Origin: a virus
UHGV virus genome: UHGV-0132372
Reading direction: 5' to 3' (one strand)
Length of the DNA: 36,038 nt
In this document: piece by piece, positions 26,602-36,038 of the stretch
How the letters are laid out: each line of letters opens with the position of its first letter
Position numbering within the stretch: the first letter of the stretch is position 1
Translations under genes and position numbers: made by a program
Notes under the pieces: generated by a model
What the model was told of the DNA's origin: nothing
The model's database searches: none
What the model saw: only the letters and a program-made list of their open reading frames with translations

Positions 26602-27186
26602 ATGCTTTCTGAGAATGCTAAAGATATACCTGGATTTGAAGGTGTTTATGCCGTAACAGAAGATGGCAGGGTGCATTCTCACTCACGTGTTGTTAAGGCT
26701 GCGCATGGCAGCACGCAACTCAGAAAGGGGCGCTGGTTAAAGCCTAAAATAAATCAGGGAAGGGTGCTTTATAATATCGGAGCAAAATGGACTTTTGCCC
26801 ATCGAATCGTTGCAATGACATTCCTGCCAAATCCTGAAAACAAGCCTCAGGTAAATCATATTGATGGCAATCCACTCAATAATAACGTCAATAATCTTGA
26901 GTGGTGCACTCAAAGCGAAAACATCAAACATGCATACGCCACAGGATTAAAGAAACCAATCAAGTTTTTCGGAACCAAGCACCCAAAACACAAGTTGAGT
27001 GATGACGATGTTCTTGCAATCAAGTCATCAAAAGAAAGCTTGTCAGTAATTGCGGCTAAGTACGGGATATCTAAGACCTGGGCAAGTAGGCTAAAGCGTG
27101 ATGCTAACTGGGTTCATATAAAGGTTGATTCCAATGGCAATACAACAACTACCACTAATGAAGGGATTAGGGAAAAGTGCGGTTAA
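26602..27186 (+). CDS. HNH homing endonuclease (NUMOD4/HNH_3 with C-terminal HTH-like region)
   Basis: IPGFEGVYAVTEDG...AHRIVAMTF...NHIDGNPLNNNVNNLEWCTQSEN; AT-rich; 3' end overlaps the gene 10 start. Confidence 0.8.
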   Translation: MLSENAKDIPGFEGVYAVTEDGRVHSHSRVVKAAHGSTQLRKGRWLKPKINQGRVLYNIGAKWTFAHRIVAMTFLPNPENKPQVNHIDGNPLNNNVNNLEWCTQSENIKHAYATGLKKPIKFFGTKHPKHKLSDDDVLAIKSSKESLSVIAAKYGISKTWASRLKRDANWVHIKVDSNGNTTTTTNEGIREKCG

Positions 27187-28552
27187 TGCTGATTATATAG
27201 ACCAACTTCCAGTCAATCTTTTAGCTACGCCCAAGGAGGTGTTGAATTCATCGGGATATCTTCGCTCATTTCCGGGCATTGCCAAACGCTCTGATGTGAA
27301 CGGCGTATCTCGCGGAGTCGAGTACAACATGGCGCAGAATGCTGTTTATCGCGTGTGTGGTGGCAAACTGTACAAAGGAGAAAGTGAAGTCGGTGACGTC
27401 GCCGGAAGTGGTCGCGTATCAATGGCGCATGGTCGGACATCTCAGGCTGTAGGCGTTAATGGTCAACTGGTCGAGTATCGCTATGATGGCACGGTTAAAA
27501 CCGTCTCAAACTGGCCTACAGACAGCGGATTCACGCAGTATGAGTTAGGTTCGGTTCGTGACATTACTCGCTTACGTGGGCGTTATGCGTGGTCAAAAGA
27601 CGGTACTGATTCATGGTTCATCACTGACCCTGAAGACGAATCGCATCCTGACCGCTACAGTGCACAATATCGTGCAGAATCGCAGCCGGACGGCATCATC
27701 GGCATCGGAACATGGCGAGACTTCATCGTCTGCTTTGGTTCATCGACGATTGAATATTTCTCCCTGACTGGTGCAACCACCGTTGGTGCTGCTTTGTATG
27801 TCGCACAGCCATCGTTGATGGTGCAGAAAGGCATTGCAGGAACCTACTGCAAAACGCAGTTTTCTGATTCGTATGCGTTCATCAGCAATCCGGCAACAGG
27901 TGCGCCGTCTGTTTACATCATCGGATCCGGTCAGGTGTCACCAATCGCCAGCGCGAGCATTGAGAAAATCCTCCGCTCCTACACCGCGGATGAACTGGCT
28001 GATGGCGTGATGGAGTCTCTGCGATTTGATGCGCATGAACTGCTGATTATCCATCTTCCGCGCCATGTCCTCGTGTACGACGCATCTTCAAGCGCCAATG
28101 GTCCGCAATGGTGCGTACTGAAAACAGGACTGTATGACGATGTGTACCGCGCTATCGACTTCATTTACGAAGGCAATCAGATAACGTGCGGCGATAAGCT
28201 GGAATCCGTGACCGGGAAATTGCAGTTCGATATCAGCAGCCAGTACGACAAGCAGCAGGAACACCTGCTGTTTACTCCGTTGTTCAAAGCGGATAACGCC
28301 AGAGTGTTCGACCTTGAGGTTGAGTCGTCAACTGGCGTTGCGCAGTATGCTGACCGCCTGTTCCTCTCTGCAACCACTGACGGCATCAATTACGGACGTG
28401 AGCAGATGATTGAGCAGAATGAACCGTTCGTTTACGACAAACGCGTTTTGTGGAAGCGAGTCGGGCGCATCAGGAAAAATGTCGGCTTCAAATTGCGCGT
28501 TATCACGAAGTCACCTGTCACTCTTTCTGGCTGCCAGATAAGGATTGAGTAA
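27134..28552 (+). CDS. tail hub / head-completion protein (P22 gp10-like)
   Basis: Long collinear similarity to P22 gp10 as recalled (…[27 protein letters not shown]…SGCQIR.E); ATG at 27134 (the ORF track starts at TTG 27125). Confidence 0.85.
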
Positions 28553-29253
28553 TGGCGGATTCATCACTGAATAATCCTGTCGCGGTTCAGGCTACGCGCC
28601 TTGATGCTTCAATTTTGCCACGCAATATCTTCTCGCAGTCGTATCTGCTGTACGTTCTCGCGCAAGGTACTGATGTTGGTAACGTGGCGAACAAGGCCAA
28701 TGAAGCAGGGCAGGGCGCTTATGATGCACAGGTCAGGAACGATGAGCAGGATGTGATTCTGGTCGATCACGAAGAAAGAATTCGTCAGCTCCGCATTGAA
28801 GTAGATGACCATGAAATCCGTATTGCTGCGAATACTGCGGCAATTGCAGCGCTGGATGTCAGACTAACCACGGCTGAAGGAGAAATAGTCACTTTACAGG
28901 CTGACGTCAGCGCTCTTGATGGCCGGGTTACGACTGCTGAGAGCAACATTTCTGCATTACAGGACGACTATGTATCGAAAACAGCCACTGCAACACAATC
29001 GCTGGCATCTCCCCTCAATGTAACAACATCCTATTCGGTCGGCGGCACCAAGGTTATTGGTGCTCGTCAGACAGGGTGGACAGCGGCTACAGGTACGGCT
29101 CTTCGCGGCTCATTCAACGCTAACCAGACATACACGGTAAGTGCCACATACACACGGTCTGAGGTGTCGGCTATGGCTACAGGATTGCAGCAGGCGCGGC
29201 AGCGTATCAAAGCTCTGGAAGATGCATTACGGACTCATGGGTTGATTGACTGA
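28552..29253 (+). CDS. tail needle (P22 gp26-like)
   Basis: [35 protein letters not shown]...coiled-coil...ALRTHGLID matches P22 gp26. Confidence 0.9.
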
Positions 29254-29710: not shown

Positions 29711-30403
29711 ATGTTATATGCATTTAAGCTGGGCAGAAAACTGCGCGGCGAGGAACCTTATTGCCCTGAAAAAGGCGGGAAAGGTGGCAGTTCTGATAAA
29801 AGCGCAAAGTATGCAGCAGAAGCCCAGAAGTATGCCGCAGACCTGCAAAATCAGCAGTGGCAGACGATCATGAAAAACCTTGCTCCGTTCACGCCGCTTG
29901 CGGAGCAGTATGTTAACCAGCTTCAGAATCTTTCCAGTTTAGAAGGTCAGGGGCAGGCACTTAATCAGTATTACAATTCTCAGCAGTATAAAGACCTTGC
30001 AGGTCAGGCTCGTTACCAGAGTCTTGCTGCTGCGGAGGCGACTGGCGGACTTGGTTCGACAGCTACAAGCAATCAACTGGCTACGATCGCGCCGACTCTC
30101 GGTCAGTCGTGGTTATCAAACCAGATGAGCAATTACAACAATCTGGCAAACGTTGGGCTTGGTGCGCTGCAAGGTCAGGCAAACGCTGGGCAGACATACG
30201 CCAACAACATGAGCAGCATTGCACAGCAAAGTGCAGCACTTGCCGCTGCTAATGCCAATAAACCATCAAGTCTTCAGACTGCAATTAGCGGTGGCACGTC
30301 TGGTGCGATTGCCGGTGCAGGTCTTGCCAGTCTTTTGGGAACATCAACGCCTTGGGGCGCTGGCATTGGTGCTGGTATCGGATTGCTTGGCTCGTTGTTT
30401 TAA
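29711..30403 (+). CDS. ejection protein (gp7-like)
   Basis: Gln/Ala/Gly-rich 230-aa protein with a Gly-rich hydrophobic C-terminus; gene order. Confidence 0.65.
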   Translation: MLYAFKLGRKLRGEEPYCPEKGGKGGSSDKSAKYAAEAQKYAADLQNQQWQTIMKNLAPFTPLAEQYVNQLQNLSSLEGQGQALNQYYNSQQYKDLAGQARYQSLAAAEATGGLGSTATSNQLATIAPTLGQSWLSNQMSNYNNLANVGLGALQGQANAGQTYANNMSSIAQQSAALAAANANKPSSLQTAISGGTSGAIAGAGLASLLGTSTPWGAGIGAGIGLLGSLF

Positions 30404-30412
30404 GGGGTAATC

Positions 30413-31801
30413 ATGGCTACTTGGCAAGGAACAAACGGCGGATTGTTGGCTGGTATCGGCGGCGTCAACTCAAACGCTCCGAGCGTAAATGACATCGGCA
30501 ATACGCTTCAGCTTATCAGGCAGAACAATGATATTGAGCGTTCAGGCGCTAACAATGTTGGGCTGACTGCTTTGCAAGGCCTTTCAGGTATTGCAGGGGT
30601 GTTTCAGCAGGAAAAGCAGGCTCAGCGGCAGAAAGAATTTCAGCAGGCGTACGCTAATGCTTATGCGTCTGGTGATCGCGGCGCTTTGCGTCAGTTGGCT
30701 ACTCAATATCCAGACCAGATTGAATCCGTTCGTAAAGGCATGGGATTCATTGATGAAGACCAGCGTAATTCTATCGGCACCTTAGCGGCTGGCGCACGCC
30801 TTGCGTCATCGTCTCCAGAAGCAATGCAATCATGGCTGCAAAACAACACCAAGGAACTGACTCGCGTCGGTGTTGACCCTAACAGCGTTGCTCAGATGTA
30901 TCAGCAGAACCCTTCAGGATTTGGTGAGTTTGTTGATCACCTTGGAATGGCTGCTCTTGGTCCGATTGATTACTTCAATGTTCAGGACAAGATGGCTGGT
31001 CGTGAAATTGACCGAGGCAGGCTGGCAGAGACAATCCGCAGCAATCAGGCTGGCGAGGCGCTAACAGCACGAGGTCAGAACATCACGATGCGCGGTCAGG
31101 ATTTATCTGCTTCTACTGCGCGACGCGGGCAGGATTTGGCAATGCAGCGAGCGTCAACAAGAGGAACCGCTGGGAATGATGAGCGTACAGTTCAGTTATC
31201 AGATGGCAGAACTGTAACGGTAGGCGGGAAACTTCACGGCGCTGGGGCTAATGCGTTCTACGAAGGTATCGACAACGAGGGGAATATGGTTCGCGTCCCT
31301 GCTGGCTCTATTGCCGCTCCGGCTACATCGGCAGCAAGCGCGCAGAATTACGCAATGAAGAAAGATCTTGATGCAATTTCTGGTGCATCAATTGACGATC
31401 TTGGCTTCATGACTGGCATTACAGGCTCTTCAGGTTCTCCTGCTCTTGGTGCAGATATTCGTAGCCGTGCATCTGGTGGTGATCAGAGGAAACTATACAA
31501 CGCTGCACAGCGAATCCAAGGAAAGATGCAGAATCAGGGCATTGCAGCAGCCAGAGACATGGGGGCATCCGGTATCAACACCGTTGCAGAAGCAAAGCTG
31601 TATTTTCAAGGTATGCCACAGGTTGATTTCTCAAGCCCTGAAGCACTGCAACAATCAATGCGCGACATTCAGCAATATACCGACAATTACAACCAGCAAT
31701 ATAACGTTAATGTTGGTAAATCTCAGCGGCAGCAATCTCAACCTACACAGGTATCACAGCCAGCAGCCAGCAGTAATTTTTCTTCACTATGGGGTGATTA
31801 A
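30413..31801 (+). CDS. ejection protein (gp20-like)
   Basis: Gene order and size (462 aa). Confidence 0.65.
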
Positions 31802-33798
31802 TGGCTAAAGCATGGAAAGATGTTATCGCCTCTCCACAGTATCAGGCGTTAGCACCAGAACAAAAAGCGCAGGCTCAGGAGCAATACTTCAATGAAGTCG
31901 TGGCCCCGCAAGCCGGAGAAAATGCAGAGCAGGCTAAGCAAGCTTTCTATGCTGCCTATCCATTGCCATCTGCGCAGCCAGTTGATACACAGCAACCAGT
32001 AGCACAGCAACAACCACAGCAAAGTGGATTTATGTCTGATCTTGGCGAAGCAGTAAAAGAGACTGGTCGCGGACTGGTACAGGCTGGCGTGAACGTGGCA
32101 AACATACCTGCATCAGTTGCCGATGCTGTAACAAGCGCGGCGGCATGGGCTGGCGGTAAACTCGGTATTGGTGATGGTACATATCAACCAGCGCCACGAG
32201 TAACAACGCAGGGATTAGAGCAGGACTTTGGCCTTCAGCAAGGCGCGCTGACTCCACAAACTACAGAGGGAAGGGTATTTGCTGAGGCATTGCCTTACCT
32301 CACTCCTGCTGGCATTGAGAGAGCGGCAACACAGGCACCAACACTCGCTGGTAGAATTGCTCAGGGTGCAACTCGCCTTCTCGCTGAAAACGCAGTCGGG
32401 TCACTTGCTGCAAATAGTGCGAAAGATGATGCGGAAGCCCTCGCCACCGATTTAGGCGTTGGTGTGCTGGCTGGCGGTGCTATTAACGCTGCCGGACGTG
32501 GATTAGGTGCTGCTTATCGTGGCGTTCGTGGTGCTATTGCGCCAGAAGCGCAGCAGGCTATCAGATTTGCAGAGCGTGAAGGAGTTCCTCTGCACACCAC
32601 AGACCTGTTACAGCCTACTTCCCGCGTCGGAAAAATGGCGCAGACGACAGCGGAAAATATCCCCCTGGCTGGCACAAGCGGAATGAGAGCAACGCAACAG
32701 GAAGCGAGAAGCCAGTTGGTGCAGAGATTTGCTGATAAATTCGGTGAGTATGATCCAGCAGTTGTTATTGACAGCCTTAAAGCGAAAACATCAGGAATTC
32801 GTCGTGCCGCCGGGAACCGTCTTGAGCAGGTTCAGAATGCAATGGCGGGAGTCAATATCCAGCCTGCGCGAGCAATTCAGCAGATTGATACAGAAATATC
32901 TAACCTGCAGAAGCTTGGTAAGGTCGCCGATAACGAGACTATTTCAAAACTTCAGTCCTATCGTGATGAGCTTGTTCGCAATGCTGGCCCTGATGGTCCG
33001 GTAAATCTGGACTTGAAGCAATTAAGCGATCTGCGCAGCCAGTTCAGAATGGACGTGAAGGGTGAGCGACCAGTGTTACCAAACCGTTCCGATGCCGCCA
33101 TTCAGCGCGTTTACAAGGCGATGACCGACGATATCAATGGTGCCATTGGTCAGAATCTTGGCAACGATACTCTCCGTAAATATCAGCAGGCCAATGCCGT
33201 CTACGCTGACGAAGCGGCGAAACTCAAGAATACCAGGCTGAAGAATGTTCTCATGAAAGGCGATCTGACGCCGGAAGTTGTCAATAACATGCTATTCAGC
33301 AAGAACAAATCTGAAATTAAGACACTGTATAACTCAGTTGGTCGTGTTGGCAGGGCGCAAATGCGCAATGGCATCATTGGAAAGGCGATGGAGAAATCAG
33401 GTGGATCCCCTGACCAGTTTCTGAGGCAGGTTAATTTGATGTCTAACCAGACGGGAATTGCGTTCAAAGGGCGTGATGCTGCGTATCTGAAAGGGATGAA
33501 GAACTACCTAGAGTCGACCAAGAGAGCAGGGCAGGCCAGAGTCACAACGCCAACTGGTCAGCAGGCTATACCGTTCATTATGGGTATAGGCTCTGTAGTA
33601 AATCCTAAAGTAGCTGCAATTGGTGGTGGCTACGGACTTCTTGCAAGAATGTATGAAAGCGAACCTGCACGCAATGCAATGCTTCGCCTGGCTAATACAC
33701 CGAGAGGCTCAACCGCATTTGAGAAAGCGTTATCTGATGTCGAACGTGTTGTTAACTCATTCGCTCAGGGTGCTAAATCAGAAGCTTTAAGCGAATAA
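31801..33798 (+). CDS. ejection protein (gp16-like)
   Basis: Gene order and size (665 aa). Confidence 0.65.
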   Translation: MAKAWKDVIASPQYQALAPEQKAQAQEQYFNEVVAPQAGENAEQAKQAFYAAYPLPSAQPVDTQQPVAQQQPQQSGFMSDLGEAVKETGRGLVQAGVNVANIPASVADAVTSAAAWAGGKLGIGDGTYQPAPRVTTQGLEQDFGLQQGALTPQTTEGRVFAEALPYLTPAGIERAATQAPTLAGRIAQGATRLLAENAVGSLAANSAKDDAEALATDLGVGVLAGGAINAAGRGLGAAYRGVRGAIAPEAQQAIRFAEREGVPLHTTDLLQPTSRVGKMAQTTAENIPLAGTSGMRATQQEARSQLVQRFADKFGEYDPAVVIDSLKAKTSGIRRAAGNRLEQVQNAMAGVNIQPARAIQQIDTEISNLQKLGKVADNETISKLQSYRDELVRNAGPDGPVNLDLKQLSDLRSQFRMDVKGERPVLPNRSDAAIQRVYKAMTDDINGAIGQNLGNDTLRKYQQANAVYADEAAKLKNTRLKNVLMKGDLTPEVVNNMLFSKNKSEIKTLYNSVGRVGRAQMRNGIIGKAMEKSGGSPDQFLRQVNLMSNQTGIAFKGRDAAYLKGMKNYLESTKRAGQARVTTPTGQQAIPFIMGIGSVVNPKVAAIGGGYGLLARMYESEPARNAMLRLANTPRGSTAFEKALSDVERVVNSFAQGAKSEALSE

Positions 33799-34083
33799 AA
33801 GCTTTCCTACAACAAGTCCGAACATTAAGAACGCAAAGTTCAATAAATCTCTGTCCATAAATCCTCCTGTTTACCAAAACTATATCAAACTTTAACGCAA
33901 TGCTGCGCAACTTAAGTGACTTTCAGGTTGATAACAGACACTCTTTTTTGCATGATTCCTTTAGACCATCACAATTGATGAAGAATCATGAAAAGAAGAA
34001 CTCTTCTAAAGTCTTTGCTCGGCCTGACGTCACTCTTACCAGTTAAGTTTGCAGCATCTCAAAACCTGCAAGGTAAAAGTATA

Positions 34084-35988
34084 ATGTCAGACATTACACC
34101 CAATGTTGTAGTGAGTATGCCTTCGCAACTCTTCACTATGGCTCGTTCTTTTAAAGCCGTAGCTAATGGTAAAATTTATATCGGTAAAATTGACACTGAC
34201 CCGGTAAATCCTGAAAACCAGATTCAGGTTTATGTGGAAAATGAAGACGGTTCTCACGTTCCTGTTTCGCAACCAATCATCATTAACGCTGCTGGATATC
34301 CGGTATATAACGGACAGATTGCCAAGTTCGTTACTGTGCAAGGCCATTCCATGGCTGTTTATGATGCGTATGGGGCGCAACAATTCTATTTTCCAAACGT
34401 ATTGAAGTATGATCCAGATCAATTAGAAAGCAGGTTGTCGGAAACTAATAGTACAGTAATGATATCTGGAGTAACCGCATCAAAAATAGCAAGTAATGTT
34501 ATTGCAACAGAATATCTTGAGTCGCCAAATGTATATGATGTGTTTGTTACGTATGGGCAGTCAAATAGCGCAGGTGAGGCTATTTTATCTGGCGATACGT
34601 CAGGCTTTCCTGCCGCTCTGCCGAAATCACTAATGTATGATTTTAGTGATGGAGCAATAAAGCCAATTATACAGAATGTGGTTAGTTCTTCTGGCGTTGC
34701 ATCATCTGGACATGCATGGGGGGAATTCGAGAATGAATGGTATCGCCTTAGCGGGCGCGGTTCAGTGGAGGTACACTGCGGCCGTGGCGCAACTACCATT
34801 GCACAGCTATCAAAAGGGACCACATACTACACGCTGTTGGTAAATGCCGTGGCGTCAGCTAAACAGGCAATGATTGCCGCTGGTTTGCCTGTCGGTAAAA
34901 CGTACGTGATGTACCACCAGGGTGAGTCGGATATGACGGCAGGGACAACATACAATGCTTATAGAGACAGCTTTATAGCCTTGATAGATGATCTGAAAAC
35001 CGATATTAATTTTGATTTATTTTGTAATTTTACCGTTGGTTGCCCGGGGAACCGAACGGAAGAATCATGGGCTGCTATTCAAAATGCGCAAAGGTGGGTT
35101 TGTAATAGCAAGACTAACGCTGTGACAGTATTTGACGGTTGCCCTTCATTTTTAAAAGGCGATGGCAATATTGGCACTACTGATGGAGGCGTTCACTATA
35201 CGCAACGCGGTTACAATACAATGGGGCGAGAAGGTGCCAGAGGATTATGGTCATTAGTTAAAGGTGGGGCAAGCAATAAAACCTCAACCGATTTAGCACA
35301 ATATTCAAATTTTGCCCCACCGTGGACAAGGGCGAAATTAGTCGCCGGTACTATTAAATACAGCAATGATAACGCTAAATGGGTTCTTTTATCTAAAGAA
35401 GTAAACAGTGAATGGAAAGTTTCCAATGCCCATAAATTAGTTGTTTCTGCTGATGGGGAATATTTTTCTGTAGAAATTGCAGACAATGCCGAAAACTGGT
35501 TTTATGCCGCCGCGGGCGTCGACCGCGCTACAGCTATAACAGGTGTCAGGTCCTACGCAGAACCTCTTCGTGTGGGAAATGCATTCACATTAAAAATTAC
35601 TATGCATGCCGACGTTTCTTTCCTTGTTAATACAAAAACAGGAGTCATTCGTTATGGAAGACCGCCTTCAGGCTCTGGTGTCCCAGAGTGGATTAGAAAT
35701 AATATCTCTGTTTCTGTGGTGAGTGCTGGCATCGTGGAAATAACGCATGGCCGCACTGCAACAATGCCATCAGCAACATATTACGCCACTAGTGACGGAA
35801 CATTATCTGCGGCAAATGTATCTGTATATGCCGGGTCAACCACAACGACAAGAGTTTATTGTGATAAAGCAAACACTGATAATCCCTGGGTGGTTGTTAC
35901 ACTTAGAGATTTACTAATTACTCCTGCCAACATGCAACATTACGATATTTCAATTAACTTTAACGGAATTTATGCGCCATCCGCATGA
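34084..35988 (+). CDS. tailspike: P22-type head-binding domain fused to an SGNH/SASA-like esterase receptor domain
   Basis: N-terminus [12 protein letters not shown]...[23 protein letters not shown]...[13 protein letters not shown]...NVLKYDPDQ matches the P22 gp9 head-binding domain; downstream GQSNSAG and HQGESDM motifs; start placed at ATG 34084 (the ORF track extends to 33988). Confidence 0.8.
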
Positions 35989-36038
35989 TATTTCGATGGT
36001 TATGTAATTAATATATTCTGTAGAATAACCCCACATTA

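Follow-up and report, generated by a model that had tools for sequence, protein, structure and literature searches.

Introduction

Esterases of the SGNH type are already an established class of phage receptor-binding proteins and have been widely discussed since 2025-26. They are common in temperate phages, and few of them have a known substrate. The podovirus tailspike gp63.1 of phage G7C (PDB 4QNL), an SGNH-superfamily esterase, deacetylates the O-antigen without cleaving it (PMC10743462). Esterase activity was also shown for two fibres of Klebsiella prophages (164_08-KL2 and 174_38-KL55), which are active on p-nitrophenyl acetate (pNP-acetate) and follow the capsule type (PMC13123978), and for the petal domain of epsilon15 gp20, an SGNH esterase that is active on O-antigen and is combined in that phage with an endorhamnosidase beta-helix. 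The Klebsiella prophage fibres and epsilon15 gp20 are receptor-binding proteins of temperate phages, and it is by function that we liken them to the tailspike studied here, which is encoded at positions 34084-35988 of UHGV virus genome UHGV-0132372. The window is the whole analysed stretch of this genome, 36,038 nucleotides. The gene has the same position, and its product the same virion chassis, as P22 gp9, Sf6 gp14 and the tailspikes of HK620 and CUS-3. The receptor parts of those four are beta-helix or beta-propeller glycanases, whereas here an esterase cassette follows after residue ~113.

This cassette, a SASA-family SGNH domain joined to a C-terminal beta domain, is mobile and stands where a beta-helix glycanase is usually found. 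The tailspike is predicted to be a SASA-type O-acetylesterase, and it probably recognises its host by deacetylating an O155-type O-antigen. RefSeq already lists the protein itself and dozens of others nearly identical to it, Pfam domains included. In the literature searched, we found no P22-like phage described with an esterase as its only spike, no description of the SASA and beta-sandwich cassette as a unit or of a link to O155-type loci, and no shown esterase activity for a member of the cassette family.

The esterase domain and its predicted catalytic residues

The first-pass annotation of the window, made from its letters, had given the tailspike a P22 gp9-like head-binding N-terminus, a SASA-like SGNH domain and a beta-rich C-terminal region, and all three were recovered. 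In the hidden Markov model search, PF03629 matched residues 151-385 with an E-value of 5.8e-14 and 52.7 bits, the cut-off being 24.8 bits, and the match spans profile positions 2-221 of 226. The two sequence blocks that had been singled out, GQSNSAG and HQGESDM, are Blocks I and III of SASA enzymes, and both align to solved members: GQSNSAG with GQSNMAG of 2APJ, and HQGESDM with HQGESD of 1ZMB and YQGESD of 2APJ. The SASA family is defined by a Gln beside the nucleophilic Ser in Block I together with the (H)QGE motif of Block III, which positions the Block I Gln in an 'inverted' oxyanion hole and replaces the classical GxN (PMC9487903). At4g34215 (2APJ), CAC0529 (1ZMB) and E. coli NanS (3PT5), esterases of the SASA or CAZy CE6 group, have the same fold, the same GQSN and the same (H)QGE. 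They differ from the tailspike in being soluble single-domain enzymes that are no part of a virion, with 14-19% identity to it and with sialic acid, or possibly acetylxylan, as substrates.

Conservation was evaluated across 28 aligned homologues, the most distant of which are ~32% identical overall and 49-51% in the SASA domain. The residues found invariant are G158, Q159, S160, N161, G164, H210, H278, G280 and E281, the run G352-C353-P354 and the pair H371-Y372, while Q279, D283 and D351 are conserved in at least 90% of the homologues. Past residue 405 the invariant residues are Tyr407 and His555 only. That the catalytic motifs do not vary argues for retained activity. The downstream D...H pair that had also been proposed stood in one half, for His371 is invariant and the preceding acid changes place from one homologue to another; a SASA Block V is expected to have Asp three residues before the His (DxxH).

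PDB 9H4U ('Deacetylase FI8 ... the diluted triad'), a 622-residue deacetylase, came up in Foldseek as a weak match at rank 12 (E 1.2e-5). Its unconventional catalytic triad may be relevant to the shifting Block V acid of the tailspike.

An AlphaFold2 model of the monomer, with the 28 homologues as input, reaches high confidence across residues ~150-634 (predicted local distance difference test, pLDDT, mostly 80-96). It consists of an SGNH alpha/beta/alpha esterase fold and beta-sandwiches, and it has no right-handed beta-helix of the kind that forms the glycanase receptor domain of P22-like tailspikes. Residues ~405-634 are all-beta, and this C-terminal domain probably serves trimerisation, glycan binding or both in what we infer to be a homotrimer. 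Across the 634-residue protein, Pfam and NCBIfam gave no glycoside hydrolase, lyase or pectin-lyase profile, and the NCBIfam search gave no match of any kind. A match to phrog_8280, named "colanic acid degradation", is confined to residues 1-133; since it covers the anchor only, it says nothing on the substrate.

The comparison with G7C, made at the outset, holds for the proposed mode of action and not for the family. gp63.1 is built of PF18668, a GDSL-type esterase (PF00657, also PF13472), G7C_GBD and G7C_C, whereas the tailspike described here matches PF03629 only and the latter two domains are absent. Homology between the two proteins was ruled out, as they have no BLASTP similarity, and a profile of the tailspike family meets 4QNL solely via the PF18668 anchor of other members. 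The tailspike of the cyanopodophage Pan3 (PDB 9VYH), from a cyanobacterial host, is 16% identical.

Klebsiella phages have true homologues of the whole cassette, namely gp84 of the N4-like KP8 and the tail proteins of Przondovirus phages (VLCpiA3b, phi1_146018, K48PH164C1). Aligned over residues 107/150-632 they are 51-53% identical, which makes them the best full-cassette relatives in isolated phages. The existing annotation of KP8 gp84 is that of a tail fibre bearing an SGNH esterase domain, and no biochemical characterisation of these proteins was found in the literature searched. They differ from the present case in their N-terminal anchors, in their Klebsiella hosts and in having a depolymerase tailspike alongside (gp83 in KP8).

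Exchange of the cassette between anchors

The anchor of the tailspike is that of its chassis. Its E-values are 1.7e-64 against Sf6 gp14 and ~1e-49 against P22 gp9, and isolated P22-like phages of E. coli have tailspikes that are 88-98% identical to residues 1-113. The Sf6, HK620 and CUS-3 head-binding domains are 88-93% identical to it and the P22 domain (1LKT) 74%. When window positions 31800-36038 were used as a megablast query, the nucleotide matches with Sf6, Gally, 720R6 and IME10 spanned gene 16 and the anchor and stopped at query positions 2622-2633, i.e. at 34,421-34,432. This stop, together with the presence of the same cassette on other anchors, shows the horizontal module exchange that had been suspected from base composition. 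As for base composition itself, the tailspike gene has a guanine-cytosine (GC) content of 0.43 compared to 0.51 in the head genes, so that the reported AT-richness is real, but it does not mark the module boundary. GC was rejected as a marker of the exchanged module because the drop begins at ~33,600 and takes in the conserved head-binding domain (0.41).

On other anchors, the cassette occurs at 79-92% amino-acid identity behind PF18668 (Tail_spike_N) domains and behind 730-residue fibre-like N-termini, and at 54-57% in proteins that also bear the T7-type domain PF03906. The linker motif NSxVxIxGVxAS...YLE is common to cassette homologues on unrelated anchors (alignment consensus). Homologues of lower identity were found in Hafnia, Lelliottia, Enterobacter and Pseudomonas. 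In an E. coli prophage the cassette gene lies beside holin and GH19 lysis genes, and another context is a pair of gut-metagenome phage contigs. In the unrelated E. coli prophage (L009, 8001-10199) and in the gut-metagenome contigs (L011, 7152-9095), which hold the cassette on other anchors at 86-92% amino-acid identity, each cassette gene is preceded by one for an 824-residue protein without a Pfam match.

The two domains of the cassette diverge at different rates. The SASA domain is 49-72% identical where the C-terminal domain is 23-45% identical, the latter being the fastest-diverging part of the cassette. In a full HMMER scan of 1.84 billion representatives, the C-terminal domain was present in just 12 clusters, and all of those tested have a SASA domain directly upstream. 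The two are therefore an obligate pair that makes up the cassette. Together, the per-domain identities and the cluster scan make the C-terminal part the likelier carrier of fine specificity.

Association with O155-type O-antigen loci

The full receptor-binding part was searched for in 5,426 complete E. coli genomes with megablast and blastn, and it was present in two of them, MS 115-1 and EC6622. In MS 115-1, window positions 34450-35988 have 99.9% nucleotide identity to the gene for WP_024198346.1, which RefSeq names "phage tailspike protein"; in EC6622 the identity is 88.5%. The EC6622 copy belongs to a different P22-like prophage, located at argW and having an immI region. The tailspikes of ECONIH6, 98195 and 23GD11002, which are similar (~72% in nucleotides) in the SASA core only, were left out of this association because their specificity probably differs. 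A gene fragment in E. coli IH5 was also excluded from the count as a likely assembly artefact. It is a 744-bp piece of the esterase gene within a 10-kb stretch (L003; NZ_CP168949.1, 5,076,941-5,087,521) made up nearly entirely of truncated gene fragments, among them fliC, fliF, wca genes, intS and replication protein P, and the stretch as a whole resembles such an artefact.

Both hosts share a rare feature of the O-antigen locus. In MS 115-1, whose wzx and wzy are named 'O155 family' by PGAP, the region between gnd and ugd holds wzx followed by a gene for a 155-residue hexapeptide-repeat acetyltransferase. The galF-gnd part of EC6622 differs from that of MS 115-1, with rfbBDAC and other glycosyltransferases, and yet the same pair stands at the same place (wzx, 90% amino-acid identity; acetyltransferase, 87%). 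The EC6622 locus is identical, protein for protein, to that of a strain deposited as O155:H21. The wzx-linked acetyltransferase gene occurs in only 10 of the 5,426 genomes, and the chance that a random draw would place both tailspike hosts in this set is ~45/14.7 million, or 3e-6. Since the prophages, the attachment sites and the O-locus backbones all differ, the two look like separate acquisitions and independent associations. It is because both hosts carry the rare wzx-acetyltransferase pair that an O-acetylated O155-type O-antigen is favoured as the receptor.

The wzx and hexapeptide-repeat module between gnd and ugd appears on the host chromosomes in two different O-antigen loci (L007, 30024-31787; L008, 32115-33878), one labelled 'O155 family' by PGAP and one from strains deposited as O155:H21. 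Their galF-gnd parts are unrelated, which suggests that two structures are pooled under the O155 label in in-silico typing.

Proposed mechanism and alternative explanations

We propose the following mode of action. Six trimeric spikes would dock to the tail hub through the P22-type anchor (residues 1-113), as in P22 and Sf6, and the cassette would bind the acetylated O-unit of the host surface polysaccharide. Ser160 and His371 would then hydrolyse the O-acetyl ester, with the oxyanion hole of Gln159 and HQGE stabilising the intermediate, and the polysaccharide backbone would stay uncut. By repeated binding and deacetylation, the particle would work its way along the uncut polysaccharide, and in the end its needle would meet the outer membrane; movement by such cycles has been argued for G7C and, more generally, for podoviruses (PMC10743462). 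The likely substrate would be the O155-type O-antigen, acetylated by the wzx-adjacent hexapeptide-repeat enzyme. Taken as a whole, this mechanism appears to us reasonably probable. That a P22-like phage passes full-length O-antigen with a non-depolymerising SASA spike alone, specific for the acetyl group of the rare wzx-linked acetyltransferase, is a claim we advance tentatively and would place somewhat short of probable.

Several observations weigh against the proposed mechanism. Two genomes make up the association, another eight bear the acetyltransferase without the tailspike, and no statement on O-acetylation of the O155 O-antigen was found in the literature searched. The Block V acid shifts: here it is D367 (-4), and homologues have E at -3 or D at -2. 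The model is that of a monomer, and the anchor (residues 1-118) is poorly predicted owing to a shallow alignment. Furthermore, the relatives at 51-53% identity sit in Klebsiella phages, for which capsule is the usual receptor, and colanic acid is likewise O-acetylated (wcaB, wcaF). These last two facts lead to the alternative of a real esterase acting on a capsule (group 1 or Klebsiella-like K antigen), on colanic acid or on another acetylated exopolysaccharide. The relatives in question (KP8, VLCpiA3b and K48PH164C1) are typically capsule-dependent, SGNH receptor-binding proteins of Klebsiella prophages follow capsule loci (PMC13123978), and both hosts have the wcaB and wcaF acetyltransferases. 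However, the colanic acid genes, being near-universal in E. coli, cannot account for both hosts falling within 10 of 5,426 genomes. Specificity is also expected to differ at such overall identity, given the low identity of the C-terminal domain (23-45%) in comparably distant homologues, and the characterised P22-like coliphages mostly use O-antigen. A capsule or exopolysaccharide substrate is thus unlikely in our estimate. The deacetylation of O-antigen could instead accompany cleavage, as in epsilon15, if the C-terminal beta domain or the trimer interface held a second, unrecognised depolymerase activity. The absence of a beta-helix and of any glycoside hydrolase or lyase profile speaks against this, and so does the C-terminal domain itself, which shows the lowest conservation in the protein and has no conserved acidic cluster, its two invariant residues being the Tyr and His given above. 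Such an activity therefore seems improbable.

The shifting Block V acid is also the point in favour of a catalytically dead, lectin-like SASA module that would do nothing beyond glycan binding. Against this, Ser160, Gln159, Asn161 and His371 are invariant and HQGE is kept across the 28 homologues, which is unlikely without catalytic constraint, and NanS is an active SASA enzyme although it too is without the Block V Asp (PMC9487903). We find a dead module very hard to reconcile with this pattern. The last alternative is a literal sialate 9-O-acetylesterase in the manner of the prophage-encoded NanS-p, with the sialic acids of host mucus or a sialic capsule as its target. The family name is no evidence of substrate, since SASA also includes acetylxylan esterases (PMC9487903). 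Besides, the protein is only 14% identical to NanS, its SASA domain is joined to a virion anchor in the sole tailspike, and no link to a sialic-acid capsule was seen, so that this reading is scarcely credible.

A P22-like phage that does pass the O-antigen with such a deacetylating spike alone would be a direct means of telling whether tailspike enzymes clear the glycan or pull the virion along it. The predicted esterase is the sole tailspike on the best-understood podovirus chassis, and the tools of P22 and Sf6 could be used for testing passage through O-antigen by deacetylation alone; both phages have established in vitro assays for DNA ejection triggered by lipopolysaccharide. The proposal also yields a concrete prediction of the receptor and of a resistance route, namely the O155-type O-antigen and the wzx-linked acetyltransferase. 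In a broader sense, it is the SASA subfamily, and not just the GDSL type as in G7C, that has been recruited into tailspikes, and a fixed cassette of two domains moves among phages of the P22-like, N4-like, T7-like and further types in Escherichia, Klebsiella, Hafnia, Lelliottia, Enterobacter and Pseudomonas.

The tailspike gene and its prophage context

The coordinates of the features are collected in Table 1. The open reading frame (ORF) extends over 33988-35988, and the start at ATG 34084 adopted in the first-pass annotation is backed by the AAGG ribosome-binding site, by the P22-like N-terminus (first 10 residues) and by the RefSeq start in MS 115-1. The same three lines of evidence rule out a start at the in-frame ATG 33988. 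Positions 33988-34083 (+) comprise 32 open codons ahead of the start, whose translation resembles a Tat/Sec signal peptide, probably by chance.

Table 1. Positions of the tailspike gene, its parts and the related tail genes in the window
Feature	Position	Strand	Details and basis
Tailspike gene, 634 codons and stop	34084..35988	+	ORF list; last gene of the prophage late operon
Ribosome-binding site AAGG	34070..34073	+	10 nucleotides 5' of ATG 34084; read from sequence
P22-type head-binding (particle-anchor) domain, residues 1-113	34084..34422	+	PF09008, E 3.7e-67, full profile
Recombination boundary at KYDPDQ, end of the anchor domain	34421..34432	.	Ends of megablast alignments
Neck/linker, residues 114-150	34423..34533	+	Predicted helices 111-118 and 132-143; 28-homologue alignment, secondary structure of the model
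SASA-family SGNH esterase domain, residues 151-385	34534..35238	+	PF03629
Block I, GQSNSAG, residues 158-164	34555..34575	+	Predicted nucleophile Ser160 and oxyanion-hole Gln159; alignment
Block III, HQGESDM, residues 278-284	34915..34935	+	(H)QGE motif defining the SASA family
Codon of His371, predicted Block V general base (GGVHYTQ)	35194..35196	+	Assigned from its place in the alignment of the family
C-terminal all-beta domain, residues ~405-634	35296..35985	+	Two beta-sandwich lobes; AlphaFold2 model
Tail needle, P22 gp26-like	28552..29253	+	PHROG; RefSeq gene list of the whole prophage
Ejection proteins	29711-33798		Context of P22-type tail

The window corresponds to a P22-like (Sf6-like) prophage of E. 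coli MS 115-1, which is apparently intact. It is integrated at the lambda attachment site, with chromosomal ybhC on one side and ybhB/bioA, next to the tailspike gene, on the other. From the PHROG annotation and the RefSeq gene list, homologues of gp4, gp10, gp26, gp14, gp7, gp20 and gp16 were identified directly upstream of the tailspike, as expected of a P22-type late operon, with the matches phrog_1219, 598, 917 and 770 in the tail needle and ejection region. The PHROG annotation and the whole-prophage RefSeq gene list show a complete P22-type tail gene set and contain no second tailspike or fibre gene, and therefore the product of 34084-35988 is taken as the sole receptor-binding enzyme of the virion. 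No O-antigen conversion gene (gtr, oac) is annotated in the prophage, and a promoter and terminator scan stayed at background level.

Between the gene-16 homologue and the tailspike there is an AT-rich spacer of 285 bp (window 33799-34083, GC 0.37). This is the site where P22 and the EC6622 prophage hold the immI region (mnt, arc, ant), which is lacking in the MS 115-1-type prophage. Further upstream, an HNH homing-endonuclease ORF (window 26602-27186, +) lies between the gp4-like and gp10-like genes and overlaps the gp10 start. A 93-bp fragment of a gp10-type gene, annotated by RefSeq just 5' of this ORF, resembles an insertion scar. Two further HNH/NUMOD4 genes are located in the nin region.
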